DNA from: Trueperaceae bacterium
Lineage (GTDB): Bacteria > Deinococcota > Deinococci > Deinococcales > Trueperaceae
Assembly (NCBI GenBank): GCA_040905465.1
Contig: JBBDRK010000077.1
Span: 1 to 15,598, forward strand
Direction: 5' to 3'
DNA length: 15,598 bases
Under the pieces are notes generated by a model. The model saw nothing but the letters and a program-made list of their open reading frames with translations, did no database searches and was not told where the DNA came from. Shown in pieces: positions 149-14,414 of this stretch. Each line of letters begins with the position of its first letter. The stretch's first letter is position 1. The translations under genes were made by a program, and so were the position numbers.

Positions 149-1609
149 ATGTCGTCTCACGGCCTGCTCGATGCGCTGAGGGAGCTGTACCCCAGGACTC
201 GACTGCTGGAGGAGCGCGCCGCCCTGGTTCCTTACGAGTCGGACGGGCTCGCCTCGTTCCGCATGAGACCGCTCGCCGTGGTGCTGCCGGAAACTCAGCA
301 GGAGGTAATCGATACCGTTCGCCTGTGTCACCGCGAGGATGTCCCTTTCCTGGCGCGAGGCAGCGGTACCAGCCTCTCCGGCGGTTCGATGCCCGTCGCG
401 GGAGGGCTGGTGATCGCCCTGAATCGCCTCAACCGCATCAAAAGGCTGGATCCGCGCCAAAGGCTGGCCGTGGTGGAACCTGGCGTAATCAACCTCGACG
501 TAAGCAGGGCCGCAGCGCCCTATGGACTTCATTACGCCCCCGATCCGAGCAGCCAGTCGATCTGCACGATCGGCGGCAACGTCGCGTTCAATTCCGGCGG
601 CGCGCACTGCCTAAAGTACGGCATGACGGCGAATCACGTGCTCGGGCTGACGGCGGTGCTGCCCGATGGGGAAGTGGTGGAGCTCGGGGGCGAGAGCCTG
701 GAGCAAGCGGGTCCGGACCTCGTAGGTTTCTTCTGCGGCAACGAGGGGCTGTTCGGAATCGTCCTCGAGATCACCCTACGGCTCCTGCCCCTGCCCGAGC
801 GGTACAAGACCGTGCTCGCCGCCTACCACGACCTGGAGGCGGCGGGAAATGCGGTAGCGCGGGTGATAGCGCTGGGCCTGTTACCGAGCGCCATGGAGAT
901 CATGGATCGATTGGCGCTGGACGCCGCCGAGAAAGCGGTTCGAGCAGAGTACCCGCCGGGTGCCCAGGCACTTCTGATAGTGGAGCTGGAAGGCGAGAGC
1001 GAGGTTGTCGAGGCCGAGTTAGCCCGGCTCACGACCGCTATCGGCGACTCGGGAGCGTACGAGGTGCGTGTCGCGGCCAGCCCCGAAGAGCGGGCATTGA
1101 TCTGGAAGGGCCGAAAGAGCGCTTTCTCGGCGGTCGGGCGACTCTCGCCAAACTACCTGGTGCAGGACGGAGTCGTGCCCAGGGGCCGACTGGGCGAGGC
1201 ACTGCGTGGAATCGAACGGCTCAGCAGGCGTTACGGCGTCGCGGTAGCCAACGTATTTCACGCCGGCGACGGCAACCTCCACCCACTCATTTTGTTCGAC
1301 GCCCGCGAAGCCGGGGCAATCGAGCGAGCCGAGAGCCTGGCCGGAGACATCCTGCGGTTATGCATCGAACTCGGCGGCTCGATCACCGGCGAACACGGAG
1401 TGGGTGTCGAGAAGCGAGAGTACCTTGCGGACATGTTCTCCGCCGTCGACATCGAAATGTTCAAGGCACTACGCCTCGCAATAGATCCCAAGGAGCTGTC
1501 CAACAGGGGCAAGATGTTCCCGCCCGAGACAACAGTCGATTCCCGGCCGGCGTCCCGCTCCGGCGAAACGGACGGCTCCGCCCCGGCCGGCCAGCCGAGA
1601 TCGCGATGA
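149..1609 (+). CDS. glcD: Glycolate oxidase FAD-binding subunit GlcD (486 aa)
   Basis: Motifs [52 protein letters not shown] and [22 protein letters not shown]-like sequence upstream. Confidence 0.93.
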
Positions 1610-2694
1610 AGGTGGTCGCGGCACTCGAGCCCAGGACCACGGCCGAGGTAGTGGATGCTGTTCGCTCTCACGACAGGCTGGTGGTGAGAGGCGGCTGCAC
1701 CAAACCCGCCCTTTCGACAGCGACGGACAGCGCTGTTGCTGTCGACATCGCCGGTCTGACAGGAATCGTCGAGTACGATCCGAACGAGTTCACCGTCACC
1801 GCTCTCGCCGGTACGCGGGTCTCCGAGGTCACCGGCCTGCTGGCGGCCAACGGCCAGTACCTCCCGTTCGATCCGCCGTTCGTTGCCGCTGGCGCCACCT
1901 TGGGAGGCAGTGTCGCTTCCGGACTGTCCGGTCCCAACCGCTACCGCTTCGGAGGCGTACGAGATTTCATCATCGGGGTGCGCCTGGTCGACGGCAGGGG
2001 GGATGAGGTGCGAGGCGGCGGCAAGGTAGTAAAGAACGCAGCCGGCTTCGATCTCCCCAAACTCATGGTCGGCAGCATGGGGCGCCTGGGGATCATGACG
2101 GAGATCACCTTCAAGGTGTTTCCCGCCCCGAAGGCCTGGCGCACGCTGACCGTAGCGATGCAGGGCATCGACGACGCCCTCGAGACGATAATGCGGCTGG
2201 GCTCGCTGCCGCTCGACCTCGAGGCCGTGGAGTTGACTCCAACGGCAACCTTGAACGTACGCATCGGTGGTCTGGAGGAAACACTGGAGGCCCGGATCCA
2301 ACGCCTCGAGCGGGCCATCGGGCGTGGTGACGGACGGGCGTTGTCGGGCGATGTCGAGCAGGCGTTCTGGAAAGAGTTGCGTGAGTTCAGGTGGCTACCG
2401 GACGAGCATAAACTCGTCAAGGTCCCCGTTACTCCGACCCGCGTGACACCACTCCACGAGCGCCTCGACAGGGCGGGCGCCACCGTCCGCTACGGCGTCG
2501 GGGCAAACGTCGCCTGGGTGGCCTGGCCGGGCGAGATGCAGGAACTGGACCGCCTCCTGAGCGCACTCGAGTTACCCGGCCTGGTGCTGATCGGACCACC
2601 GGAAAGTCCGAGAATCGGCCATGTCGCGGGCCGGTCTTTCGCCGCTCGCATCAAGTCCGTACTGGATCCGGCTCGTCGGTTTTCGGAGGTCTGA
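1606..2694 (+). CDS. glcE: Glycolate oxidase FAD-binding subunit GlcE (362 aa); true start is ATG 1606, not 106
   Basis: ATGA overlap with the glcD stop. Motifs [44 protein letters not shown] and [23 protein letters not shown]. Confidence 0.92.
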
Positions 2695-3984
2695 ATGCAA
2701 TACGAAAAGCCGGTCGAAGATCTCATTCCCCAGCGGGAGGAGATGACCCGAGCGATTCAGTCGTGCGTGCACTGTGGCTTCTGTCTCCCCACTTGCCCCA
2801 CGTACGTTGAAATGGGTGAGGAGATGGACTCCCCCCGCGGCCGCATATTCCTGATGAAAGAGGTGTTGGACGGCGGTCTCACGCTGGAGGAGGCGTCCCC
2901 GTACATCGACAACTGCCTGGGCTGCCAAGCGTGCGTGACGGCCTGCCCCTCGGGCGTTGAATACGGCGAGTTGCTGACACCCTTCAGGGCCTGGGCGGAA
3001 CCGCGACGCCAGCGTGCTCCGATGGACAGGCTCCAGCGACTGCTGTTGTTGGAGACGCTCCCTTTCCCCGAGCGCTTTCGCCTGGCTACCTTGGCGGGCC
3101 GTATGGCGCGACCGTTCGCCCGCCTTTTGCCGGAACGGGTCCGGGCGATGCTCGAGCTGCTTCCCGAGCACCTGCCTCGAGCGCCGCAGTTACCAGCCGT
3201 ATATGCCGCCACGGGCGAGCGCCGGGCGCGGGTCGCGCTCCTGGCCGGCTGCGCCCAGCGCGTGCTGGCGCCAGGCATCAATTGGGCAACGCTACGCGTG
3301 CTGGCCGAGAACGGGGTCGAGGTAGTGATTCCCCCACGTCAGGCGTGCTGCGGTGCGCTCGCGCTGCATACCGGTAGCGAGGCACGAGCCATGGCCACGG
3401 CGCGTCGAAACCTGGACGCATTCGTACCTGGCGACGTCGACGCTATCGTCTCCAACGCTTCCGGTTGCGGATCGGGGATGAAGGAGTACCCGCTGCTGTT
3501 CAAGGGCGCCTCGGAAGAAGCCGGCGCGCAGGAGTTCGCCGACAAGGTCATGGACATCTCCTCGTTCCTGGCGTCGCTCGGGGCAAGGCCGGCACAAGGC
3601 TTCCCGCGGCCGGTCCGGCTCGTCTACCATGACGCCTGCCATCTGGCCCATGCCCAGGGTGTGCGGAGCGCGCCACGCGACCTGCTCGCCGCCGCCCCGA
3701 ACCTGGAGCTGCTCGAGCCGCAGGAATGGGAGTTGTGCTGTGGCTCGGCCGGCACCTACAACATCGAGAAGCCCGATGTCGCTGGCGCCCTCGGGGAACG
3801 CAAGGCGGGGAATCTGCTGGCTGCCGGCGGCGATGCGGTGGCCACAGGTAACATCGGCTGCATGACACAGATCGGGTACCACCTGAACCGGCTCGGCCGT
3901 CCGCTGCCGGTGCTTCACACCGTCGAGGTACTCGACCAGGCGTACCGGGGCGTTTTCCAGCAGGAGCTTGCGCCCTCTGGTTAG
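2695..3984 (+). CDS. glcF: Glycolate oxidase iron-sulfur subunit GlcF (429 aa)
   Basis: Two 4Fe-4S motifs ([24 protein letters not shown]), DSPRGRI, CCG domains ([25 protein letters not shown]) and GNIGC. Start abuts the glcE stop. Confidence 0.93.
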
Positions 3985-4096: not shown

Positions 4097-4447
4097 CTAC
4101 AGCATGACGGCGAGAAGATCTTCACGGGGCGGAGTGAAGACGTCGAGCAGCCGGCCCTGCTCGTGAGCGGTCACTCCGTGCTCCAGGTCGCGCGGTATCC
4201 GTAACGTATCGCCGGCCTTCACTTCCAGCTCGCGACCGTCGATACGGAAAGTGAATCGTCCTTCCAGCACGTGCGAGACCTGCTCGTTGGGATGACTATG
4301 CATGGAACCGGTGGCGCCGGGCTCGAAACGTACCTCCATCGCCGTCAGCGACTCTCCGACTGCGACGAGGCGGCGCTCGACTCCGGTGTCGGCCACTTGC
4401 CAATCGGTTCGGAACAGGACGTCTTGCTTGACCTCGCTATCGCTCAT
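4097..4447 (-). CDS. kdgF: KdgF-type cupin (ring-opening/ketonisation of 4,5-unsaturated uronates), 116 aa
   Basis: Cupin motifs HSHPNEQVSHVLEG.F.F and GD...IP...HG, and a KdgF-like C-terminus LLDVFTPPREDLL. GGAGG SD 6 nt upstream. Clustered with kduD. Confidence 0.75.
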   Translation of the reverse strand: MSDSEVKQDVLFRTDWQVADTGVERRLVAVGESLTAMEVRFEPGATGSMHSHPNEQVSHVLEGRFTFRIDGRELEVKAGDTLRIPRDLEHGVTAHEQGRLLDVFTPPREDLLAVML

Positions 4448-4510
4448 CGGATGCCTCCAGGGCCCACTGTCGGGCCAGAACTATCGGTCGAGACGGTCAC
4501 GGGTGCCACT

Positions 4511-5578
4511 TCAGGCCGTCGACCGGGTGACCAGAGTGACGGGGAGCGTCACGTGTCTTTCGGTGATGGGCTTCTCCTGCAGATGATCGATGATCAGGTC
4601 GGCTGCCCTGGCGCCCAGGTCGTAGGCAGGGAATTCGATCGTCGTCAGCGGCGGGTCTACAGCGGCCGCCACGCTGAAGTTGTTGAACCCGATCACTGCC
4701 AGGTCTTCCGGGACCCGAACGCTTCGTGATCGAGCTGCGCGCAAGGCCCCCAGGGCGAGGAGGTCGTCGAAGCAGATCAGGGCGGTGGGCGGGTTACGGC
4801 GCCGCAGCAGCTCCAGCGTCAACTCGTGGCCCTGGGTGATCTCGGCGGGTTCGTTGGCGTGCTCCGTAATGACTATCGTGTCGGCCTTGCCGTGCTCGGC
4901 ATAGAGGGTGAGTTCCTCCTCGTACTCGAGGCCGTGGTCGGCGAGCCCCTTCAGGTATCCGGAGTGGCGGGCCCTGCTGGTGTAGGTGGAGAGGGCGCGG
5001 CTCAGGTAGGCGATTCTGGTATGCCCTCGGCGCACCAGGTAGCCGACGGCAGAGCTCAGACCGCCTTCGTCGTTGGCGCATACGGTATAGGCGTTTTCGT
5101 TCTCGCGCTGGATCTCCACTACCGGCAGCCCCAACTCCTCGAGCGCGTCGAGGTGAGGTTCGCTCAGGTCGGATACCACCGTCACCAGCCCATCCACCCG
5201 GCCGAGCAGATTCTTGGGCCAGACCAGCCCCGTTCCGCCGCCGCCCTGTAGTTCGCCGAGTTGCAGCGAGTAGAGGAGCAGGTGGTATCCCCGTCTGTTG
5301 CCGGCCGCCAGTGCCCCGTTGAGAATCTCTTCGAGGTAACCGGAGGCCGAGAGTCGGCCGTGCCGAGTGCCGGCGTAGATGAAGCCGAGAGTCCTCGTCT
5401 CGCCACCACGCATCGCCTGGGCCCACGCCCGGGGGGTGTAGTCGAGTTTGCGGATGGCGGCGAGGATTGCTTTGCGGGTGTCTTCCGATACCCCCGCCTT
5501 CTCGTTGATCACCAAGGAGACCGCCTGTGCCGACACGCCTACCTCGGCCGCAACGTCCTTGATCGTCGGTCGCCCCAT
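4511..5578 (-). CDS. LacI-family transcriptional regulator 1 (355 aa)
   Basis: HTH TIKDVAAEVGVSAQAVSLVIN, hinge LDYTPRAWAQAM, C-terminal RVPEDLAVIGFNN...PPLTTI...LVTRST. Confidence 0.95.
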   Translation of the reverse strand: MGRPTIKDVAAEVGVSAQAVSLVINEKAGVSEDTRKAILAAIRKLDYTPRAWAQAMRGGETRTLGFIYAGTRHGRLSASGYLEEILNGALAAGNRRGYHLLLYSLQLGELQGGGGTGLVWPKNLLGRVDGLVTVVSDLSEPHLDALEELGLPVVEIQRENENAYTVCANDEGGLSSAVGYLVRRGHTRIAYLSRALSTYTSRARHSGYLKGLADHGLEYEEELTLYAEHGKADTIVITEHANEPAEITQGHELTLELLRRRNPPTALICFDDLLALGALRAARSRSVRVPEDLAVIGFNNFSVAAAVDPPLTTIEFPAYDLGARAADLIIDHLQEKPITERHVTLPVTLVTRSTA

Positions 5579-5579
5579 A

Positions 5580-5591
5580 TGGAACGTTAAA
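5580..5591. promoter_or_regulatory. Candidate LacI-1 operator O1 (TGGAACGTTAAA)
   Basis: 10/12 match to the palindrome TTTAACGTTAAA with central CG. Shares CTTTAACGTTC (11 bp, reverse strand) with the site at 7712-7722. Immediately upstream of the lacI-1 start. Confidence 0.65.
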
Positions 5592-7575
5592 GTACCACAG
5601 GCGGACGAACATGCAACGTCAGCCTCATTCGAGTGCGGCTGGTGCCCGCCGGCAGGTGGAGCGCGACAGTCCAGGGCAGCGGCCCCAGGAAGCTGTGTCC
5701 TGCCGGCAAATCCGACGTGTTCTCGACGTTCAGCCGTCGGAGCGGACCGTCTACCTGGAGCTCGAGCTCCAGGTCGCGAGGGCGCGGTTGCGCCTGCCGG
5801 TCCTGGAGGCGACCCCGAAAGCGGTGGTGGCGTTCACCAAGCTTCTGGTGTCGCGGGAGAGCTATCGCCAGGAGCGAGTAGCGGTGCTCGATGTCGTTTC
5901 GCTCGGTCGAAAACGAGTGCTCGCAGCAGAGTTCGTCTCCGCGAAGCTCGTACGAAATGCTGAGCTCGGCGATGCCGCTTGCCAGCTCCAGACTGTTCAC
6001 GTTGAGGAGCCGGGTCCAGTGCAGCGTCAGTCTGTTCGCGTCGAACTCCACCTCGTCGCAGCCTTCGGCCGCCGACCACACGCTGCCATCGGTCAGCTCG
6101 ATGAACTCCGTTCCGTAGGGGGCGCTTTGCTGTGTGGGGACGTCCAGCAGGAACGGAACCAGGGGAGACGGCAGGTAGTTCGAGGAGAGCTTCGGTTCGA
6201 ATGAGGTGTTGCTTCCCACCAGCGGCAGCGCCACGTGCCAAGGCCCGGACCGGGCTATCCACAGGCCGTAGCAGCGGCCTCGTCGATCGCCCTTCGGTTC
6301 GCGGAATGACTCCCAGTGAGACCGGGCCGACGCTGCCGTGGGCTCGTCGTTACCCGGTTCGGGGAGGAGTGAGTCGGACGGTGTGGCGGTGCCCGTAGCC
6401 GTGCTGAGAGGTTCGAAGCTCCTCGCGGTCCGGTGCGCGCCTTCGGCGCCGCCGCTGGGCATTCCGTTCATCTCCTCGAGCTCTTTTGCCGCATGGAGGA
6501 TCTTCACCAGCATGCCGAAGGTGCTGCCGACCAATCGGTGGGGACCGCGGTAGCTGTAGGGCTGCCTGCCGCCGCGGTGCATGGTTGTGAGCCCGTCTTC
6601 GTCGAACCACTCCCGCTTCAGCGTCTCGAAGGCCCGCACGGCGGTGTCCAGGTCGAGTGACAATTCGGCTTCGCCGATCACCCCGCGCTCGAACAGGAGC
6701 GGACTGAGGCCGAGGACCACGTAGATGGTCGTTCCGTACGAAATTATCCCTTGGCTGCGGCCCCAGCAGACCGCGTAGCCGTCCGCCCTGGCAAGCAGTC
6801 GGAACACCGTGAGGTAGCGCTGGGCTATCGGCAGCAGACGTTCGAGTTCCCGCGGCCAGTCGTACTCCCGGCATAGCCTGACGGCGGCCGCGACGGTCTC
6901 CCATGCGTACTGATCGATGACCGCATCCGGCGGTTTGTCGTCGAACCAGGGATCGGCGTGCAGTTTGTCGAGCAGCAACCCTAACGCCGTGCGTCCCGCC
7001 CGAAGTACGGCGTCGCTGCTGCCCGCCGAACCTTCCTCGCCCAACAGGCGCGACGCCAGCAGTGCGTTCTGAGCCGTGATCCACAGGTAGTTGTCCGGCA
7101 GGGTTCGCATTCGCCGGTTATCGGCGTCGAAGTAGTGCCCGACGTCGAAGAGATTGCCGAGACCCGACTCTCGCACCTCGGGATCGAGCCGGTGCCACAA
7201 CGCGTTGTCTGCAAGCGGGCCGTATGCCCAGAGCGTTTCCAGGACTGCGCGATGCGGGAAGGGGACGAGACGCTGCCGCAGGTAGGGCAGAACGCTTCGG
7301 ACAACGCGGCGATCGACGGTTTCCTTCTCGCCCTCGTCGAGGTGGCGGCGCAACAGCGCCAGGAAGGCTGAAAAGTGGGCTCCGTTCTCGGCGTCGGAGC
7401 CGCCCATGTGCGGCCTGTCGTCGCGCTGCTGTTGTCCCAAGCGGTAGCCGGTCACGACAGGCGGGAGCGTTCCGTCGATGAGGAGCCGGCCTTCGAGTGC
7501 TCGGCCGCATGCCCGCGCGAAATCGACCATCTGCCCGGCGAGTCGTTGCTGGATTCGTGGTTGCGTGTCGGTCAA
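5587..7575 (-). CDS. Uncharacterised 662-aa cytoplasmic protein; putative carbohydrate-active enzyme with helical N-domain and beta-rich C-domain, distantly DUF2264/GH154-like
   Basis: TTG start with AAGGAG SD, no signal peptide. Ordered motifs DNYLW, PWFDD.....IDQY and QRY...F..L...DG....WGRS recall DUF2264 NNW / GWYxDG..DYY / RY...L...DG....GRS. The gene call is solid; the product is tentative. Confidence 0.6.
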   Translation of the reverse strand: MTDTQPRIQQRLAGQMVDFARACGRALEGRLLIDGTLPPVVTGYRLGQQQRDDRPHMGGSDAENGAHFSAFLALLRRHLDEGEKETVDRRVVRSVLPYLRQRLVPFPHRAVLETLWAYGPLADNALWHRLDPEVRESGLGNLFDVGHYFDADNRRMRTLPDNYLWITAQNALLASRLLGEEGSAGSSDAVLRAGRTALGLLLDKLHADPWFDDKPPDAVIDQYAWETVAAAVRLCREYDWPRELERLLPIAQRYLTVFRLLARADGYAVCWGRSQGIISYGTTIYVVLGLSPLLFERGVIGEAELSLDLDTAVRAFETLKREWFDEDGLTTMHRGGRQPYSYRGPHRLVGSTFGMLVKILHAAKELEEMNGMPSGGAEGAHRTARSFEPLSTATGTATPSDSLLPEPGNDEPTAASARSHWESFREPKGDRRGRCYGLWIARSGPWHVALPLVGSNTSFEPKLSSNYLPSPLVPFLLDVPTQQSAPYGTEFIELTDGSVWSAAEGCDEVEFDANRLTLHWTRLLNVNSLELASGIAELSISYELRGDELCCEHSFSTERNDIEHRYSLLAIALPRHQKLGERHHRFRGRLQDRQAQPRPRDLELELQVDGPLRRLNVENTSDLPAGHSFLGPLPWTVALHLPAGTSRTRMRLTLHVRPPVVL
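5589..5616 (-). promoter_or_regulatory. Putative sigma70-type internal promoter for lacI-1
   Basis: Minus strand: TTGCAT (5616-5611), 16 bp spacer, TACTTT (5594-5589), preceded by a TGn extended -10. The start codon is 10 nt downstream with no SD. Confidence 0.5.
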
Positions 7576-7589
7576 GACGAAGTTTCTCC

Positions 7590-7601
7590 TTTAACGGTAA
7601 A
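7590..7601. promoter_or_regulatory. Candidate LacI-1 operator O2 (TTTAACGGTAAA)
   Basis: 11/12 match to TTTAACGTTAAA. Overlaps the edge of the SD (AAGGAG, 7591-7586) of the 662-aa gene. Confidence 0.6.
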
Positions 7602-7663
7602 TGCGCGCCGGCATGAGTGCTTGGGGCCGTCCAGATGGGGATACGAGCGAAGTGTCTAGACTA

Positions 7664-7692
7664 CCTATACGTTATGGTTCTTGACATGTCAA
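7664..7692 (-). promoter_or_regulatory. Putative leftward promoter for the 662-aa gene operon
   Basis: Minus strand: TTGACA (7692-7687), 17 bp spacer, TATAGG (7669-7664). The -10 lacks the conserved final T. Confidence 0.4.
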
Positions 7693-7709
7693 CTCCGTAC
7701 GTGTAAGTT
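7681..7709 (+). promoter_or_regulatory. Putative sigma70-type rightward promoter for the ABC-iolB-kduD operon
   Basis: Perfect TTGACA (7681-7686), 17 bp spacer, TAAGTT (7704-7709), in an AT-rich patch of a GC-rich sequence. Confidence 0.7.
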
Positions 7710-7712
7710 TGC

Positions 7713-7724
7713 TTTAACGTTCAA
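7713..7724. promoter_or_regulatory. Candidate LacI-1 operator O3 (TTTAACGTTCAA)
   Basis: 11/12 match to TTTAACGTTAAA. Covers the predicted +1 of the rightward promoter. Confidence 0.7.
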
Positions 7725-7813
7725 CACGACCTGCCTGGTTCGGTCAAGTTCCGAAGGGATTAGGCGCCGGCGCACAGCCGGGCCCTTCGGCATATCCTTG
7801 AAGGAGGTACTAC

Positions 7814-9274
7814 GTGAAGCGACTTTGGCGACGACTTTCCCTGCAGGCGGTGGGCGCGACGATCCTGCTGGCCGGTTTGCTGATGGCACACGCACAGGAC
7901 GTGCGGGTGTGGAGCATTTCGGTAGAGCAGAACGACTTCTACCGTGAGCTCGAGCAGGCGTTCGCGGAGCGCTATCCGCAGTGGGAGCTCCAGTTCGAGA
8001 CCTTCAGCCAGGACACCTTCAAGCAGACTCTTCCGCTGGCGTTCGAAAGCGGAGAGGCGCCCGACGTGCTGCTCACCTCGATGGACGTGCCGATGGGAGA
8101 GATGCTCGACAACCGCTGGCTCGCGCCGGTAGCCGGCGGGCAGGAAGTACCGCAGTCGTTCATCGACAGGTTCCCCGCCAATACCTTCGTGAACGGCCAC
8201 AACATGGTCGACGGCGAGATCTACGGAGTGCCGACTAACGAGCAGGATATCTGGGGACCCGGCTACATGTACGTGAACCGCACGGTGCTGCGTGAGGCCG
8301 GAGTCGATCCCGACAGCGAGATCCCCACCACCTGGAGCGAACTGCTCGAGGTGTGTGAGCGGGTTACGGAAACCGGCTTATCCTGTTTCACCGCCTCGTT
8401 CAATGAGCGTTCGCAGATCGACCGCTGGTGGATCCCGTTCACCGCCGCGGCACAAAGCTCGAGCCCCTTCAACTACCAGACGGGCGAATTCGCCTACGCA
8501 GATCCTGCCAGGCTGCGCGCCTGGGAGCTGCTCCACACGATGTACGAAAGCGAGTACTTCATCCCGGGCGTGGAGACCACCGACCGCGAGACCTCCCGCC
8601 AGATCTTCGCCCTCGACCAGGCCGCCTTCTACACGGACGGTGCCTGGATGCCCAGCGTCTTCCGCGAGGGTATGGGCTTTCCCGACCTCGACTTCACCGT
8701 GGCGGCCGTACCAAGTCCCGACGACGGCGTGCAGGGAGCACTTCCCAAGGGCCTGCTGATCTCCCGGCTGCACGTCACCTCACAGGTGAGCAATCCTGAG
8801 GCAGCCTGGGCGCTGGTCGACTTCCTCACCCAGCCCGACGGACAGTATGCCCAGGGCTACGTCGGCGGCGGCTTCGGTTTCCTCTCCTTCACCGACAACG
8901 GCCGCTGGAGCGACCCTGACGACGCCGAGCTGCAGGAGGTACTGAGCCTTGGCCAGGAGATGCGGGTGTTCGAGCCGGTACCGCTCCTCGCCTGCGGCGA
9001 CATGGCGCAATCCACCGCCTACCGCGACGCCCTCGCCGATCCGTCCTTCGCCGAAGAGCAGTCCAGCGTCATCGAGTCGCTGGTCACTGGCCGCGACTGG
9101 GCGGAGAAGGCCAGTGAACTGGCAACCGGGCGCCAGGCCCTGCTTCTCGCCAACCTCGAGGAGGAAAGGGCCGCCGGGCTCGATGTGAGCATCGACTACT
9201 TCACCTACCCGGAGTGGCAGTTCGGCAGCGACTTCGACTACGGCATCTACCCGCTCTGCCAAGCGGACCGCTGA
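7814..9274 (+). CDS. Carbohydrate ABC transporter substrate-binding protein (486 aa)
   Basis: AAGGAGG SD and GTG start. Sec/SPI signal ending AHA|QD. Family-1 SBP features SGEAPDV, VDGEIYGVP, YVN..L..AG.DP...P.TW.EL and AAFYTDGAW. Precedes two permeases. Confidence 0.9.
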   Translation: MKRLWRRLSLQAVGATILLAGLLMAHAQDVRVWSISVEQNDFYRELEQAFAERYPQWELQFETFSQDTFKQTLPLAFESGEAPDVLLTSMDVPMGEMLDNRWLAPVAGGQEVPQSFIDRFPANTFVNGHNMVDGEIYGVPTNEQDIWGPGYMYVNRTVLREAGVDPDSEIPTTWSELLEVCERVTETGLSCFTASFNERSQIDRWWIPFTAAAQSSSPFNYQTGEFAYADPARLRAWELLHTMYESEYFIPGVETTDRETSRQIFALDQAAFYTDGAWMPSVFREGMGFPDLDFTVAAVPSPDDGVQGALPKGLLISRLHVTSQVSNPEAAWALVDFLTQPDGQYAQGYVGGGFGFLSFTDNGRWSDPDDAELQEVLSLGQEMRVFEPVPLLACGDMAQSTAYRDALADPSFAEEQSSVIESLVTGRDWAEKASELATGRQALLLANLEEERAAGLDVSIDYFTYPEWQFGSDFDYGIYPLCQADR

Positions 9275-9290
9275 GGGGCGACGTCAGGTA

Positions 9291-10265
9291 ATGAGTCTCT
9301 GGAAGGCGACGGGGTCGGGATTGATTTCCCGGCCCCATTCCGGGTTCAGCCGAGCGGGGATGGCCCGTCGGAGGCGGGAGTGGGCGTGGTGCTATCTCTT
9401 CCTGCTGCCGTTCCTGATCTTCTTCCTAGCCTTTACGCTGTGGCCCATCGCCGCCACGATCGGCTGGTCGTTCACCGACTTCCGCGTGCCCAGCCCCAGG
9501 ATGAACTTCATCGGCCTCGAGAACTTTCGCACCCTCCTCAAGGACGAGCTCTACATCCGCTCGTTCGTCAACACGATCATCTTCGCGCTGGGCAACACCG
9601 CCGTCAAACTGCCGCTGTCGCTGATCCTTGCCGTGTTCCTCACCAGAAAGTGGGTCGCCGGCAAGAGTTTTTTCAGGACCATCTATTTTCTGCCCATCGT
9701 GGTGCCCACGGCAATCGCCGGATTGATCTTCGCCCTGCTCCTCCACCCTCTCAACGGCGCGGTCCCCGACTTCCTGCGCGATCTCGGCCTGATCGGCAGG
9801 CGCGACAACCTGTTCCTGGGTGGCCGGGTTTCGGCGATGACCACGATCATCGCCGTAAGCGTGTGGCAGATACTCGGGCAGTATCTGATCTACTGGATCG
9901 CCGCGCTGCAGGGAGTGCCCGATGAACTGACCGACGCAGCCCATATCGACGGGGCGGGCTTCTGGCAGGAGTTGTTCCTGGTGACGCTGCCTGCCATCAG
10001 GCCCGTCGCCACCATCATCGCCTTCCTGGGACTGGTGAACGCCTTCAGCGTTTTCGGTATCGTACTCACTCTCACCGGCGGCGGTCCCGGCGCGCAGAGC
10101 TACGTGATGCAACTGTTCGTCTATGATCGGGGGTTCACCGAGGTGCCCTTCCGCTACGGCTACATTTCGGCGGGGGCGCTCCTGTTCTCACTGCTCATCC
10201 TGGCGACGTTCCTCCTGCAGACGTTCACCGTACGGCGGGCCCAGGCGCACCTGGCCAGCCGCTGA
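9291..10265 (+). CDS. Carbohydrate ABC transporter permease (MalF/UgpA-like); start could be ATG 9360
   Basis: About six hydrophobic segments, FIGLENF, FFRTIYFLP, EAA-loop variant ALQGVPDELTDAAHIDGA, LTGGGP. Confidence 0.93.
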   Translation: MSLWKATGSGLISRPHSGFSRAGMARRRREWAWCYLFLLPFLIFFLAFTLWPIAATIGWSFTDFRVPSPRMNFIGLENFRTLLKDELYIRSFVNTIIFALGNTAVKLPLSLILAVFLTRKWVAGKSFFRTIYFLPIVVPTAIAGLIFALLLHPLNGAVPDFLRDLGLIGRRDNLFLGGRVSAMTTIIAVSVWQILGQYLIYWIAALQGVPDELTDAAHIDGAGFWQELFLVTLPAIRPVATIIAFLGLVNAFSVFGIVLTLTGGGPGAQSYVMQLFVYDRGFTEVPFRYGYISAGALLFSLLILATFLLQTFTVRRAQAHLASR

Positions 10266-11203
10266 TGGCACGGCACGAACCCACCTCGGCTCCTCCTAAG
10301 CCGGCCCGCCGCAACCGAAGCCGCTTTCGCCCGTTGAAGGCCGTTCAGGTGTACCTGGGGCAGGGGCGAACACTGCGTAACAACCTGCTCCTGTGGGCAG
10401 TACTACTGATCATCGGCTTCGTCTGGATGTATCCGCTGCTGTGGATCGTCTCGGCGGCGTTCAAAAACTCCCGCGAAGTGTTCACGGCCGGCCCGAACCT
10501 GATCCCCGCCCAATGGCTGGGGTTCGAGAACTTCGTTCGGGCCTGGAAGGTGGCCAGCTTCGGACAGTACCTGGGAAACTCGGTCCTCTATGGGGTGCTG
10601 TCGGTAGTCATCGTAGTCGTACGGTCGATCCTGGCCGGATACGTGCTGGGACGGTTCCGCTTCCCCGGACGCGCCCTCATAATCGCGGTCGTCGCGTTCA
10701 CGGTCTTCGTACCGGTCGAGGGTTCGGTGATCCCGCAGTTCCGGCTGGTCAACTGGATCGACAAGAACCTGTTCCCGCTCCTGAACACCTACTTCGTGGT
10801 GCCGCTGATGCAGGGCGGCGGCGGCTCGCTATGGGTCCTGCTCTACCTGGGAGCGTTTCGCGCGCTACCCTCGGAACTGTTCGAGGCTGCCGAGGTAGAC
10901 GGCGCCAACTTCTGGCAGAAGTTCCGACTAACCGCGCCGCTGGTGAATCCCATCACCGCCACCGTCGTGATCTTCCAATTCCTGGCGTCCTGGGAAGACG
11001 TTCTCAACCCCATCATCTACACCCTGGGCAAGCCGGAGCTCCGCAACCTGCAGTCCGGCCTGATTGCGTTCCAGGGAGCCAACGCCACCGACTGGGTTGG
11101 CCTGGCCGCCGCCATCGTGATAACCATCATCCCGGTTATCGTCCTATTCCTCGCTGTCCAGCGGTTTTTCGTTCACGGACTGGCCGGGGCCGTGAAGTCC
11201 TAG
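10265..11203 (+). CDS. Carbohydrate ABC transporter permease (MalG/UgpE-like)
   Basis: TGATG overlap with the previous gene. YPLLWIVSAAFK, RFRFPGR, EAA loop LPSELFEAAEVDGA, C-terminal QRFFVHGLAGAVK. Confidence 0.93.
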   Translation: MARHEPTSAPPKPARRNRSRFRPLKAVQVYLGQGRTLRNNLLLWAVLLIIGFVWMYPLLWIVSAAFKNSREVFTAGPNLIPAQWLGFENFVRAWKVASFGQYLGNSVLYGVLSVVIVVVRSILAGYVLGRFRFPGRALIIAVVAFTVFVPVEGSVIPQFRLVNWIDKNLFPLLNTYFVVPLMQGGGGSLWVLLYLGAFRALPSELFEAAEVDGANFWQKFRLTAPLVNPITATVVIFQFLASWEDVLNPIIYTLGKPELRNLQSGLIAFQGANATDWVGLAAAIVITIIPVIVLFLAVQRFFVHGLAGAVKS

Positions 11204-11287
11204 TCGCCTGCCGCGCGCGGCCGGAGCTCCCGCCCCGGCAGTAGATCACGACCGCCGCCGTTTCCAGACAGAACAGAAGGGTTTTTC

Positions 11288-12088
11288 ATGCGCTACTTTC
11301 ACCGAATCGACAAGACGAGCGGACTCAGCGGGCTGCAAGATGACGCCTGCAAACTCCTCGATTTCTCCAGACTCAACCTCGAAGCAGGCGGGCGCTACGA
11401 AGGCAGGCTGAGCGCCGAACGCGAGGCGGTTCTGGTCGTGCTCTCCGGCTCAGCCAACCTCGAGGTGAACGGCGTTCGTTTCGACAACGTGGGCGGAAGG
11501 CCAGACGTGTTCTCCGGTAATCCCCATAGCGTGTACCTGCCCCGCGGAGCCAGCTTTCTGGTCGAAGCCGCGTCGGCCATGGAAGCCGCCCTGCCCTCCG
11601 CGCCGGCGTTCGAGGAATACGCTCCCTACCAGGTCCTTCCGGGCGAAGTCGACACCGGGACGTGGGGGACGCTCAATTTCACCCGTTACTTCCGCAAGAT
11701 CGTGGTTCACGGCGACGGTCGGCCGGCTTCACGAATCATCGTTGGCGAAACCATTACCCCCAGCGGTAACTGGAGCACCTTCCCACCCCATAAGCACGAG
11801 GTGGCCGAAGGCGGCGAGGTGTTCCACGAGGAGATGTACTACTTCCGCAACTCCTCCCCCGACGGCTACGGTCTCGTCCAGCATTACAGCCCGGAGCGCG
11901 GCTACGACAACACTTACCGGGTAGAGGACGACACCTTGCTGTCGATGCCGCACGGCTACCACACCTACGCGGCGGCCCCGGGCTCGGCCAGCTACTACCT
12001 CTGGTTCCTGGCGGGGGACGGCCGAGAGCAGGGCACGAGTTTCGATCCCAGAGTGGGCTGGGTGCAGAAAACGGTGGGAATGGTCTGA
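11288..12088 (+). CDS. iolB: IolB-type isomerase (KduI/IolB superfamily; 5-deoxy-glucuronate isomerase-like), 266 aa
   Basis: Motifs GGRPDVF, VGETITPSGNWSTFPPHKH, HEEMYYF, PHGYH and YYLWFLAG are IolB-like rather than KduI-like. The true substrate may differ (see findings). Confidence 0.8.
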   Translation: MRYFHRIDKTSGLSGLQDDACKLLDFSRLNLEAGGRYEGRLSAEREAVLVVLSGSANLEVNGVRFDNVGGRPDVFSGNPHSVYLPRGASFLVEAASAMEAALPSAPAFEEYAPYQVLPGEVDTGTWGTLNFTRYFRKIVVHGDGRPASRIIVGETITPSGNWSTFPPHKHEVAEGGEVFHEEMYYFRNSSPDGYGLVQHYSPERGYDNTYRVEDDTLLSMPHGYHTYAAAPGSASYYLWFLAGDGREQGTSFDPRVGWVQKTVGMV

Positions 12089-12870
12089 TGCCTCAATCGT
12101 CGCTTTACGAACGGTTCTCGCTGTCCGGCCGCGTGGCCCTCGTAACGGGCGGCGCCACCGGTATCGGGCAGGCAGTCGCGATCGCCCTGGCCGAAGCCGG
12201 AGCGGACGTTGCGATCACCGTGCGCCGGAGCCGCGCCGCTGAGACGGAAGAGCGGGTACGTGCACTGGGCCTCCGCTTCGCCGCACTCAGCACCGAGCTT
12301 TCCACGCTCGACGCGGACGGGGCGGGACGGCTGATGACGCGGACCGAGGACGAACTGGGGCCGGTAGACATCCTGGTCAACAACGCGGGGACGATAAAGC
12401 GAGCGCCGGCGGCGGAGCACCCCGAAAGCGATTGGCGGGAGGTTCTGTCCACGAACCTCGATGCGGTCTGGTACCTCTCCCAGGCGGCCGGGCAAAGGAT
12501 GCTCGATCGGACGAGCGGCGGCAGTATCGTCAACATCGCGTCGCTGCTGTCGTTCCAGGGCGGCATCAACGTACCTGGCTACGTCGCAGCGAAGCATGGC
12601 GTCGCCGGCCTCACCAAGGCGTTGGCCAACGAGTGGTCCTCCCGGGGGGTGAACGTAAACGCGATAGCGCCCGGTTACATCGTGACCAGCAACACCGAAG
12701 CGCTGCGGAGCGACCCCGTTCGAAGCAAGCAGATTCTGGAGCGAATTCCGGCGGGACGGTGGGGAGATCCTCGAGACCTGGCCGCCGCCGCCGTGTATCT
12801 GGCCTCGCCCGCTGCCGCCTACGTACACGGCCACGTTCTCGTTGTCGATGGCGGCTGGATGGCCCGGTGA
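12088..12870 (+). CDS. kduD: 2-dehydro-3-deoxy-D-gluconate 5-dehydrogenase KduD (SDR), 260 aa
   Basis: TGGATGIG, DILVNNAG, KduD-typical NIASLLSFQGGINVPGYVAAKHGVAGLTKALANEW, RIPAGRWG, VDGGWMAR. TGATG overlap with iolB. Confidence 0.9.
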   Translation: MPQSSLYERFSLSGRVALVTGGATGIGQAVAIALAEAGADVAITVRRSRAAETEERVRALGLRFAALSTELSTLDADGAGRLMTRTEDELGPVDILVNNAGTIKRAPAAEHPESDWREVLSTNLDAVWYLSQAAGQRMLDRTSGGSIVNIASLLSFQGGINVPGYVAAKHGVAGLTKALANEWSSRGVNVNAIAPGYIVTSNTEALRSDPVRSKQILERIPAGRWGDPRDLAAAAVYLASPAAAYVHGHVLVVDGGWMAR

Positions 12871-13088
12871 AGGATCAGATGGCGGTGAGGGAGGTTCGGC
12901 GGTCACTGAGTGAGACACCGGTAGTGGGCGTCCTGCGGGCTGCAGGAGCGGAGGAGGCACTGGCCAAGGCGGAGCTCGCCATCGCGGCCGGCCTGCGGGC
13001 GGTCGGGGTGGTCGCGAGCTGGAAGATCGCCCGTTACGGGGCGATACCGCCGGTGGATGAGGAGCTGTCGTCACTTAGGCGCAACTAG
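12867..13088 (+). pseudogene. eda: Truncated KDPG aldolase (eda/kdgA) N-terminus fused in frame to a PfkB/KdgK-like C-terminal tail (73 aa)
   Basis: GTGA overlap with the kduD stop (alternative ATG 12879). PVVGVLRAAGAEEALAKAELAIAAGLRAV matches the first beta-alpha unit of Eda. Similarity stops at the catalytic Glu position, and no GAGTV continuation appears in any forward frame. Confidence 0.7.
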
Positions 13089-13225
13089 CGGCGATTGGAG
13101 CAGACAACCGCTTATCCTTTCCGGAGTCACTGCAAGCTCCTACTTACGATGCCGCGCTAACGCCCGTTCGACACTCGTATCGTGCGCCTGCCTCGAGCGA
13201 CCCTGTTCGCGGCCGAGCAGAAGTG

Positions 13226-13234
13226 TGCTACTGT
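13226..13234 (+). promoter_or_regulatory. Putative extended -10 promoter for the lacI-2 operon
   Basis: TG-C-TACTGT (TGnTAnnnT) immediately upstream of the operator palindrome. Confidence 0.5.
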
Positions 13235-13265
13235 TCCGGTAACGTTACCGGGAACGCTACCGGAA
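13234..13265. promoter_or_regulatory. Tandem LacI-type operator upstream of lacI-2
   Basis: Perfect 16-bp palindrome CCGGTAACGTTACCGG (13236-13251) plus an overlapping 14/16 copy CCGGGAACGCTACCGG (13248-13263). Both have the central CG typical of LacI sites. Confidence 0.75.
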
Positions 13266-13337
13266 GACTTTCGGATGTGGCGCCAGGATGAGCCTGGCCG
13301 CGCCGCCTCTGCGGTGCGCCAAGTTGGAGCGTGAAGC

Positions 13338-14414
13338 GTGGAAGATGTGCGTGACGTAACGATCGTCGAGGTCGCGGCCCAAGCGGGCGTGTCGGTTTCG
13401 ACCGTGTCGCGTATCCTCAACAATCGCCCCGACGTCGCCAAGAGGACGCGCGAACGAGTACTGAACGTCATCAAGCAACTGGGCTTCGAGCCTCATGCGC
13501 CGGCCCAGCGCCTGGCGGGCGGCAAGAGCCGCACGATCGCAGTGCTGTACCCGCTGGAGCAGCCCGGTGAAGAGCCGGTGAACCAGTTGCACCTGGACTT
13601 CACTATCGGCGCCGCTACCGCCGCCGGGGAGAGCCAGTACTTCTGCAATCTGCTCACCAATCCGGTCACGGCCGAGTCGCTGCTGGGACTATTCCGCGGC
13701 AGGAACATCGACGGACTGATCCTGATGGAGGTCTACCTGGACGACTGGCGCGTCAACCTGTTGCGGGAACACGAGCTGCCCTTCACCCTGGTCGGCCGGA
13801 CCGCAGACGAATCCGCCACCGACTTCACCGACCTCGACATCGAGACCGGCGTGTCCGACGCCTTTGGCCATCTGGTGACTCTCGGTCACCGCGCCATCGG
13901 CTTCCTCACCTACGCCGGTCATCTGCGCACCAACGGCTTCGGTCCGGCCGTGCGCGCCTGGTCGGGTTACCAGCGGTCCCTGGCCGCCCACGACCTGCCG
14001 CCGATCGCCCATGAGCTGAGGTTCACGGCGGAGGACATGGCCGAGGCCACGCACGCCCTGCTCGACGAACACCCCGGGCTCACCGCCATCGTCAGTCTCA
14101 CCGACGCTCCGACAGGAGCCGTCATCAACGCGCTGATAGACCGGGGCCTGCGCGTGCCCGACGACGTGTCGGTCGTGGGCCTGGCGACCGACCGCATGGC
14201 CGACATGTTGTCGCCACCGCTCACAGCGATCCAATTCCCCGCCTACGACATGGGATTCATGGCCGCCAGCCGGCTGATCCACCAGCTGGAGCGGCGACCC
14301 GAGCCGGCTCGGAGCACGGTAGTGACACCCCAACTGGTCGTGCGAGGCACCACCGCCGCGCCCTCGGCCGAACGAAGGCCGGAGTCCTTACCGCTGGATC
14401 GGACGGCTGGCTGA
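13338..14414 (+). CDS. LacI-family transcriptional regulator 2 (358 aa)
   Basis: GGAG SD and GTG start. HTH TIVEVAAQAGVSVSTVSRILN, LGFEPHAPAQRL, GLRVPDDVSVVG, PPLTAI, LVVRGTT. Confidence 0.95.
   Translation: MEDVRDVTIVEVAAQAGVSVSTVSRILNNRPDVAKRTRERVLNVIKQLGFEPHAPAQRLAGGKSRTIAVLYPLEQPGEEPVNQLHLDFTIGAATAAGESQYFCNLLTNPVTAESLLGLFRGRNIDGLILMEVYLDDWRVNLLREHELPFTLVGRTADESATDFTDLDIETGVSDAFGHLVTLGHRAIGFLTYAGHLRTNGFGPAVRAWSGYQRSLAAHDLPPIAHELRFTAEDMAEATHALLDEHPGLTAIVSLTDAPTGAVINALIDRGLRVPDDVSVVGLATDRMADMLSPPLTAIQFPAYDMGFMAASRLIHQLERRPEPARSTVVTPQLVVRGTTAAPSAERRPESLPLDRTAG

Follow-up and report, generated by a model that had tools for sequence, protein, structure and literature searches.

The window analysed here, which is the whole of a 15,598-base contig (C77) of a Trueperaceae bacterium with a GC content of about 65%, carries a divergent gene cluster that we consider, with somewhat better than even confidence, to be a self-contained LacI regulon for the import of a uronate-containing oligosaccharide. 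Within it, a rare protein of 662 amino acids, here called X662, would act as an eliminase and feed the Kdu pathway, which would run with an IolB-type isomerase. The host genome comprises 3.53 Mb in 81 contigs and is 95% complete. The pathway as such is known; what is new is that a rare, uncharacterised family appears in the release slot and that a large subfamily of proteins labelled as IolB appears as the partner of KduD. The placement of the genes on both arms, as given in a preliminary description of this DNA, was confirmed with Pfam and NCBIfam models, and all named genes were found at the positions given below.

In the proposed scheme a solute-binding protein (SBP) and two permeases would import the oligosaccharide, using an ATPase encoded elsewhere. 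In the cytoplasm X662 would then act on a uronate residue by beta-elimination between C4 and C5, and the resulting 4,5-unsaturated uronate would be linearised to 5-keto-4-deoxyuronate (DKI) by a KdgF-like cupin. The IolB-type isomerase would convert DKI to DKII in the place of KduI, and KduD would reduce DKII to 2-dehydro-3-deoxy-D-gluconate (KDG). The genes for KdgK and Eda lie on contigs C43 and C49, and their products would finish the route to pyruvate and glyceraldehyde-3-phosphate. The LacI repressor is predicted to bind two operators of the TTTAACG type in the spacer that separates the arms. The identities of the genes, their conserved order, the operator, the fold and the distant homology described in the following are observations, whereas all catalytic activities and the substrate in this scheme are predicted. 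A route via KduI and KduD points to galacturonate, glucuronate or iduronate and not to alginate.

The IolB-type isomerase and KduD

The presumed KduI analogue for the step from DKI to DKII is a protein of 266 amino acids (11288-12088, forward strand; PF04962, 221 bits). It belongs to the same Pfam family as KduI (NF002091) and IolB (TIGR04378), and KduI, IolB and, as predicted, isomerases of the window type have in common the aldose-ketose isomerisation of six-carbon uronate-type aldehydes. However, it reached only 16.2 bits with the KduI model, far under the cut-off of 250, and with 196.7 bits it stayed just below the cut-off of the IolB model (205). A search of solved structures at E <= 0.01 returned no KduI, and the sole solved relative found was the 'IolB-like' protein 2qjv. 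The assignment in the preliminary description, an IolB-type protein and no KduI, is borne out by these scores. The own genome contains a separate, ordinary IolB on contig C49 (295 bits), and no canonical KduI was found in it.

A search with the isomerase across 301 genomes of the phylum Deinococcota (for one of them, G034, matches were counted only) yielded a bimodal distribution: 24 matches outside the own genome, spread over 22 genomes, were 55-70% identical, and all others, including the own copy on C49, were at most 41% identical. Among the loci that were fetched, all from Deinococcota as the only phylum examined, KduD followed directly downstream in 21 of 22 high-identity loci (the exception being L034) as opposed to none of seven low-identity loci. 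In the window the start of the KduD gene (2-dehydro-3-deoxy-D-gluconate 5-dehydrogenase; 12088-12870, forward strand) overlaps the stop codon of the isomerase gene by 1 nt, and its product passes the equivalog cut-off of TIGR01832 narrowly (341.4 vs 338.85 bits). As judged from sequence and gene order, the window isomerase is a member of a distinct PF04962 subfamily whose own partner, unlike that of KduI and IolB proper, is KduD.

This subfamily is large, with 1245 matches at E <= 1e-60. All of the source names listed read either '5-deoxy-glucuronate isomerase' or 'IolB domain', and the named sources, which comprise Deinococcota and several Proteobacteria, include Deinococcus, Meiothermus, Trueperaceae, Chitinimonas, Burkholderia, Cupriavidus, Roseobacter and Paucibacter. 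In Deinococcota the subfamily most likely fills the KduI role in uronate catabolism, and its label as '5-deoxy-glucuronate isomerase' is probably a systematic misannotation. If the subfamily does act as KduI, inositol and uronate metabolism are mispredicted in the genomes that carry it. The earlier idea of a non-canonical protein in the isomerase slot is favoured, with KduD following in 21 of 22 loci, but the protein is not peculiar to this cluster. No description of an IolB-type KduI was found in the literature covered; supplementary tables, including the cluster lists of PMC12838403, lay outside this coverage.

Sister operons with Ogl

Four loci with the isomerase-KduD pair were widened (L051, L052, L053 and L057), and all four contain, in this order, the genes for LacI, permease, permease, SBP, IolB-like isomerase, KduD, Eda, a PfkB kinase, cupin and Ogl. 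The SBP of these operons has 510 amino acids, and Ogl is a member of PL22 (PF14583, 68-71 bits). The pair occurs without the remaining genes in L054 and L055; L056 was fetched as well, where the pair was missed by crude calling of open reading frames. In L050, from genome G049, KduD and a PfkB kinase lie beside the IolB-like gene.

The window thus has LacI, a two-permease importer, the IolB-type isomerase, KduD and the cupin in common with the Deinococcota form of the Ogl-type operon (KdgF, KduI, KduD, KdgK, KdgA). The logic would also be the same, with an oligomer being imported, an unsaturated uronate freed in the cytoplasm and the product converted to KDG. In contrast to the Ogl-type operon, however, the window encodes X662 instead of Ogl, its Eda gene is a stub, KdgK is encoded elsewhere and the genes are arranged in two divergent arms. 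As Ogl is present in four of four sister operons, X662 occupies the usual slot of the cytoplasmic oligouronide lyase. The likeness of X662 to PL22 Ogl is one of operon position only, as the two differ in fold class and X662 does not match PF14583. Both operon types encode a large binding protein, but the SBPs are only about 24% identical, and therefore the ligand is probably different.

These operons also bear on another reading, in which the right arm would be an inositol-related module with a true 5-deoxy-glucuronate isomerase and the uronate interpretation would be wrong. It is true that the closest curated model is IolB (TIGR04378, 196.7 bits), that the closest solved protein is the 'IolB-like' 2qjv and that all source names seen point in the same direction. 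Yet the score remains under the IolB cut-off of 205, the genome has its 295-bit IolB on C49, nearly all high-identity loci (21 of 22) have KduD next in line, and all four sister operons also include Eda, KdgK, KdgF and Ogl. No other iol-type match occurred in the loci either, for which neighbours were compared with the reference set and Pfam was applied to selected reading frames only. An inositol module is therefore regarded as very improbable, and it is the least probable of the three rival explanations considered here, which jointly hold about a quarter of the probability. The uronate route with two stand-in proteins that had been proposed at the outset is favoured by this comparative evidence (KduD in 21 of 22 loci; the Ogl slot in four of four operons), and X662 may act as lyase, dehydratase or hydrolase.

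X662 and the loci that carry it

X662, the candidate uronate 4,5-eliminase (5587-7575, reverse strand), is encoded by a reading frame that starts with TTG and has an AAGGAG ribosome-binding site 8 nt ahead. No signal peptide is apparent by reading. The protein matched zero Pfam and zero NCBIfam families, the described lyase families and PF07470 included, and a phmmer search against the PDB sequences gave zero matches at E <= 10. A word-indexed search of 5.8 billion clusters placed the family in only 11 clusters at 90% identity, which is tiny when compared with the 4344 matches of DUF2264. Among 1.84 billion representatives at 50% identity, three matched at E <= 1e-30 and 58 at E <= 0.001. The more distant relatives P0013-P0054 are 21-27% identical. 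A homologue was present in one of 60 relatives (G029), and none was found in five further genomes with the isomerase-KduD pair.

Besides the window, four loci with an X662 homologue were read, namely L004 (from G029), L005, L006 and L007; the set excludes the family members P0003, P0004, P0006, P0008, P0009 and P0011. In all four of these loci the homologue adjoins the SBP gene, the IolB-like gene or both. The full set of SBP, two permeases, IolB-like isomerase and KduD occurs in the window, L004, L005 and L007, and L006 is cut by the contig end after the SBP gene and a fragment of the first permease gene. LacI and the cupin stand beside the X662 homologue in all four loci with enough sequence on that side (the window, L004, L005 and L006); the contig of L007 ends inside the X662 homologue. 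The preliminary description had named a lack of such co-occurrence as grounds for rejecting its uronate reading; this refuting condition did not arise, since X662 homologues do sit with SBP, IolB-like or KduD genes at all five loci read, including the window.

In L005 and L006 genes for Eda and a PfkB kinase follow directly after the cupin gene. L007 has a different LacI gene and a GH88-like gene ahead of the SBP gene. The SBP of the window is 52-65% identical to the SBPs of the four related loci. The GC content of the contigs of L004-L007 ranges from 38% to 61% (38%, 52%, 61%), as compared with 65% in the window; as the module is thus found on contigs of 38-65% GC, it has moved horizontally between distant hosts. 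With respect to the window, the isomerases of these loci are 65-70% identical, but the X662 homologues only 37-46%, and X662 therefore evolves faster than its partners.

Three of the related loci, unlike the window, carry a xylose-isomerase-like TIM-barrel gene and/or a GFO/IDH/MocA oxidoreductase gene after the genes for cupin, Eda and KdgK (L005, 14888-15715; L006, 6916-8805; L004, 13581-14573), the oxidoreductase being present in L004 and L006. The products of these additional genes may process the second sugar in the substrate. A preprint (10.1101/2024.03.25.586180) reports that gut bacteria carry a gene cluster for non-hydrolytic glycoside cleavage. Enzyme pairs of the kind seen here are reportedly used in that route.

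Fold and remote homology of X662

The AlphaFold (AF2) model of X662 (pLDDT 83.5, pTM 0.86) consists of an (alpha/alpha)6 barrel (residues ~5-374) and a beta-sandwich (~418-660), which are joined by a disordered linker (375-415). With the full-length model, Foldseek retrieved the PL33 structure 8r73 from the PDB at E 3.4e-9 and others up to about 1e-5, at a probability of 1.0. Further matches were the PL15 enzyme Atu3025, an exo-alginate lyase from Agrobacterium, PL12 heparinase III, PL8 hyaluronate and xanthan lyases and the PL17 enzyme Alg17c. When the C-terminal domain was modelled alone (pLDDT 84.8), PL33 took the top nine rows (E ~2e-5), followed by sandwiches of the phosphorylase and mutarotase type. 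X662 accordingly has the two-domain architecture in common with lyases of PL33 (8r73, 8r72), PL15 (3a0o), PL12, PL8 and PL17, and its C-terminal sandwich is most like that of PL33, whose structure entries include a Y291A mutant (by title). Lyases built from an (alpha/alpha)-toroid and a beta-sandwich act by Tyr-based beta-elimination. On the other hand, X662 differs from all of these lyases in its low identity (8-12%), in TM values of only about 0.45-0.5, in matching no Pfam lyase family and in its N-terminal domain, which is a closed six-hairpin barrel and closer to AGE, GH88 and GH154 enzymes.

The second line of kinship leads to DUF2264, the family of the GH154 enzymes. The ESM Atlas model of X662 aligns over 557 residues (TM 0.68) with a cluster of DUF2264 + DUF2264_C proteins, and it aligns more weakly with ulvan-lyase-like and heparinase-like clusters; the two-domain layout of X662 resembles that of the long DUF2264 + DUF2264_C proteins. 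At the sequence level, the family member P0012 passes the PF10022 threshold (26.2 vs 25 bits), and a distant relative, P0016, reaches 32.1 bits. A profile comparison by hhalign of 42 superfamily members (A3) with 24 DUF2264 proteins (A5) gave 91.1% probability (E 1.1e-6) over 132 columns, spanning residues 122-275 of X662. Four motifs are paired in this alignment: D161-N162-Y163 with DNN, WFDD with WYSD, D221-x-Y223 with D-x-Y, and G272-R273-S274 with GRS. Invariant among the 42 superfamily sequences are N162, D213, D221, Y223, R273, S274, Y342 and Y467. The earlier statement that the cluster lacks a recognisable lyase is therefore correct for the sequence, but by fold X662 is lyase-like and by profile it is a remote relative of DUF2264/GH154.

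According to the available text of PMC12269599, the GH154 enzyme BcGDH is proposed to use Y229 as the more likely base, with R285 as the alternative, and Y289 as the acid; the R285A variant is inactive, and N176, N177 and Y354 are also located in the active site. In X662, N162, Y223 and R273 lie in the motifs that correspond to N176, Y229 and R285 of BcGDH, a mapping that is based on motif identity and spacing and not on structural superposition. By spacing only, Y342 can be added, which lies 69 residues after R273 just as Y354 of BcGDH lies 69 residues after R285. The remote homology of X662 to the beta-D-glucuronate dehydratases of GH154/DUF2264 (BcGDH, 9o4u and 9nwf; BT_3677) thus includes the Asn, Tyr and Arg motifs. 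Unlike the GH154 enzymes in polysaccharide utilization loci (PUL) of Bacteroides, X662 would be cytoplasmic and served by an ABC importer.

The same source states that GH154 genes often adjoin GH88 or GH105 genes, and it proposes to reinterpret GH154 as a dehydratase family (PMC12269599, available text). Both GH154/DUF2264 and X662 are tied to unsaturated-uronate catabolism, and the X662 homologue of L007 lies beside a GH88-like gene in GH154 fashion. With one of five X662 loci, however, a co-occurrence with GH88/GH105 of the GH154 type was not observed for the family. In the literature covered, no account of a DUF2264-named protein or of an X662-type release enzyme was found, the supplementary tables of PMC12269599 being outside this coverage.

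A true DUF2264 gene was encountered in genome G049, on contig C38 (L016, L050). There, a GH88-like gene lies directly upstream of a DUF2264 + DUF2264_C gene, and this pair is located about 15 kb from the IolB-like, KduD and PfkB genes, with genes for GH31, GH2, GH3, GH1 and a binding protein in between. The region looks like a larger glycan-utilisation island.

Possible roles of X662

Several observations weigh against the proposed scheme. X662 has no solved close relative, with at most 12% identity among the top ten Foldseek rows, and with 12.3 bits (E 0.083) it misses the PF10022 threshold of 25. A first hhalign run with thin alignments, including three DUF2264 proteins only, resulted in a probability of just 10.9%. 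The profiles A1 and A3 found no significant GH154 match among the PDB sequences, 9o4u appearing at E 0.61 with A1 and being absent with A3. For the proposed acid of BcGDH, Y289, which lies at +4 from the Arg, the alignment offers no equivalent, as it stops at residue 275 of X662; X662 has a Tyr at +7 (Y280), which is not conserved in the wider set. Among solved proteins, those closest to the SBP are binders of neutral xylo- and arabino-oligosaccharides. The GH88-like gene in the operon of L007 fits a pair of dehydratase and hydrolase better than a lyase that releases monomers. Finally, VIA-align, which is dominated by the N-terminal domain, ranks cellobiose 2-epimerases of the AGE family first (3wkf, Z 23.9, 317 residues, rmsd 3.4).

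This last result would suit an epimerase or isomerase similar to the AGE superfamily, which would reshape the imported sugar and leave the release of DKI to an enzyme encoded elsewhere; N-acylglucosamine 2-epimerases likewise appear, at Z ~19-20. Against this, no sequence model of the AGE superfamily matched X662, and the residues that are invariant across the X662 superfamily are Asn, Asp, Tyr and Arg, not the His pair of AGE enzymes. In addition, the fold matches of the full-length protein and of the C-terminal domain are two-domain lyases, and the genome searches described below turned up no alternative enzyme for the release step. An AGE-like function of X662 consequently appears improbable.

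Following the epimerases, VIA-align lists GH88 enzymes (Z ~19), the GH154 structures 8oi4 (Z 18.4) and 9o4u (Z 17.4) and then GH105 for the N-terminal domain. X662 could be a functional analogue of GH88/GH105, which would add water to the C4=C5 bond in unsaturated oligosaccharides produced by lyases of other organisms and release DKI directly, without an elimination. The resemblance of its N-terminal domain to 3wiw and 2zzr (Z 18.7-18.9) and to the GH105 structure 4xuv (Z 17.5) and the invariant acidic residues D213 and D221 are compatible with such an enzyme, and a genome without GH88/GH105 or any of the searched lyases may scavenge ready-made unsaturated oligomers. However, X662 does not match PF07470, its sequence link, including Tyr and Arg, is to DUF2264/GH154, and the L007 operon has a GH88-like gene as well as an X662 homologue, which argues for non-redundant roles. 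A further point concerns KdgF, whose role is described in the available text of PMC12838403: we infer that it would be of greatest use downstream of an enzyme whose product is a free, cyclic unsaturated monomer. Overall, a GH88/GH105 analogue is considered unlikely, albeit the least unlikely of the three rivals.

The genome-wide searches revealed no alternative release enzyme. Neither the own genome nor G029, each about 95% complete, yielded a match to PF07470 (GH88/105). In the own genome, PF07940, PF00544 and PF02278 were not found, there was no true match to PF10022 (DUF2264), and tblastn searches with Ogl, two GH88-like proteins and DUF2264 returned nothing. X662 is thus the sole candidate that emerged for producing the unsaturated uronate. 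On contig C42, a weak match to PF10022 (~20432-22408, 659 codons) was rejected, because the translation resembles a type I restriction-modification methylase; the next reading frame resembles a specificity subunit.

Within the favoured interpretation of X662 as an eliminase, two activities can be distinguished: a lyase that frees monomers, as Ogl does, or a dehydratase of the GH154 type that acts on a saturated uronate at the non-reducing end. The lyase is favoured because of the Ogl slot, the co-transcribed KdgF and the lack of any GH88/105 found, the dehydratase because X662 is related to GH154 and L007 carries a GH88-like gene; on balance we lean modestly towards the lyase. A more far-reaching idea, to be put forward tentatively and rated as rather doubtful, is that X662 defines a new eliminase family acting at C4-C5 of uronates, sister to GH154, which together with KdgF alone makes both PL22 and GH88/105 unnecessary. 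In that case a saturated glucuronide or aldouronate, for example, could be cleaved or dehydrated intracellularly, and the Kdu pathway could be fed without any recognisable polysaccharide lyase. X662 represents a concrete rare family, in a defined genetic context, for testing as a carbohydrate enzyme at a time when GH154 itself is proposed for reinterpretation (available text of PMC12269599). Under this eliminase interpretation, a genome without any of the searched lyase or GH88/105 families may still live on uronide fragments.

The KdgF-like cupin

The cupin is encoded by the last gene of the left arm (116 amino acids; 4097-4447, reverse strand; Cupin_2, 63.9 bits). It matches the solved KdgF structures 5fq0 (E 2.9e-16) and 5fpx (E 8.6e-14) over its full length (residues 13-112); two unnamed solved cupins, 7zyb and 2pfw, score slightly above them. 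Its identity to the cupins encoded by two Ogl-type operons, L053 and L057, is 54-55%. The protein can hence be described as KdgF-like, and linearisation of 4,5-unsaturated monouronates is its predicted function.

Regulation

The gene for the LacI-family repressor (4511-5578, reverse strand; LacI helix-turn-helix and Peripla_BP_3 domains) lies between those for the cupin and X662, and its product is 56-57% identical to the LacI proteins at the same position in L004, L005 and L006. Motif comparison identified two putative operator sites in the spacer between the arms: site 1, CTTTAACGTTCAAC, at 7712-7725 on the importer side, and site 2, CTTTAACGGTAAAT, at 7589-7602, which adjoins the ribosome-binding site of X662. 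Both have CTTTAACG in common. In the entire genome of 3.53 Mb only three sites were found with at most two mismatches from CTTTAACGTTAAAG, where about 1.6 are expected by chance, and two of the three are those of this spacer. The third, on contig C28, was dismissed, as it lies inside a coding region. The homologous intergenic regions of L004, L005 and L006 each contain two sites with the half-site TTTAACG. The repressor is probably local to the locus, with a presumed operator that is almost confined to it genome-wide, and the single operator motif for both arms that had been noticed in the first reading of the letters was recovered here as nearly locus-specific.

Between the two operator sites lies the palindrome TTGACATGTCAA (7681-7692), which was noticed by reading and is also present in L004. 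It may represent two back-to-back -35-like hexamers of divergent promoters. A consensus promoter scan of the spacer (7576-7813) called no promoter and did not report the palindrome.

Completion of the pathway

The right arm ends with a reading frame of 69 codons (12879-13088, forward strand), which is probably a 5' stub of eda, the gene for KDPG aldolase. Its Pfam match to Eda is weak (PF01081, E 0.13), and tblastn of five Eda proteins against 12700-13400 gave nothing significant. Its residues 1-42 are, however, collinear with residues 1-42 of the Eda encoded after kduD in a sister operon, at 43% identity and E 1e-7, a value computed against a database of only nine sequences. About 45 codons are Eda-like and are followed by unrelated sequence. 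On the basis of this collinearity the eda remnant of the preliminary description is accepted as a probable 5' stub.

The own genome contains three Eda genes, two of which, on C43 and C49, adjoin a PfkB kinase gene. Compared with the cluster-linked genes of L006, these Eda proteins are 47% (C43) and 40% (C49) identical and the PfkB kinases 50% on both contigs. Given these two Eda-PfkB (KdgK) pairs, the pathway can be completed.

Transport and neighbouring genes

The importer is encoded by the first three genes of the right arm, all on the forward strand. The SBP (486 amino acids; 7814-9274; SBP_bac_1, SBP_bac_8) has an N-terminal signal-like segment, and its best solved relative is the xylo-oligosaccharide binder 3zkk (E 1.6e-10). 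It is followed by permease 1 (9291-10265; BPD_transp_1, with UgpA-like and MalF-like NCBIfam matches) and permease 2 (10265-11203; BPD_transp_1, UgpE-like and MalG-like). No ATPase gene was found within the cluster beside these three genes. Five DNA sequencing runs from two studies contain all or part of the stretch, one of these runs being a possible source of the DNA, and no RNA sequencing run containing it is listed.

Upstream, three genes resembling glycolate oxidase subunits (149-3984, forward strand) converge on the cupin gene. They encode an FAD-linked oxidase (149-1609; FAD_binding_4 and FAD-oxidase_C), an FAD_binding_4 protein (~1606-2694) and an Fe-S/CCG protein (2695-3984). A listed reading frame of 862 amino acids at 106-2694 is probably an over-long frame.

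Downstream of the eda stub lies a second LacI gene (13338-14414, forward strand), which is preceded by the perfect 16-bp palindrome CCGGTAACGTTACCGG and an overlapping near-copy (13236-13263). The window ends with a reading frame of 394 codons after this gene, cut by the contig end (to 15597) and without a Pfam or NCBIfam family. According to the ESM Atlas it represents the N-terminal part of an unannotated family of ~830-900 amino acids (TM 0.70-0.76).

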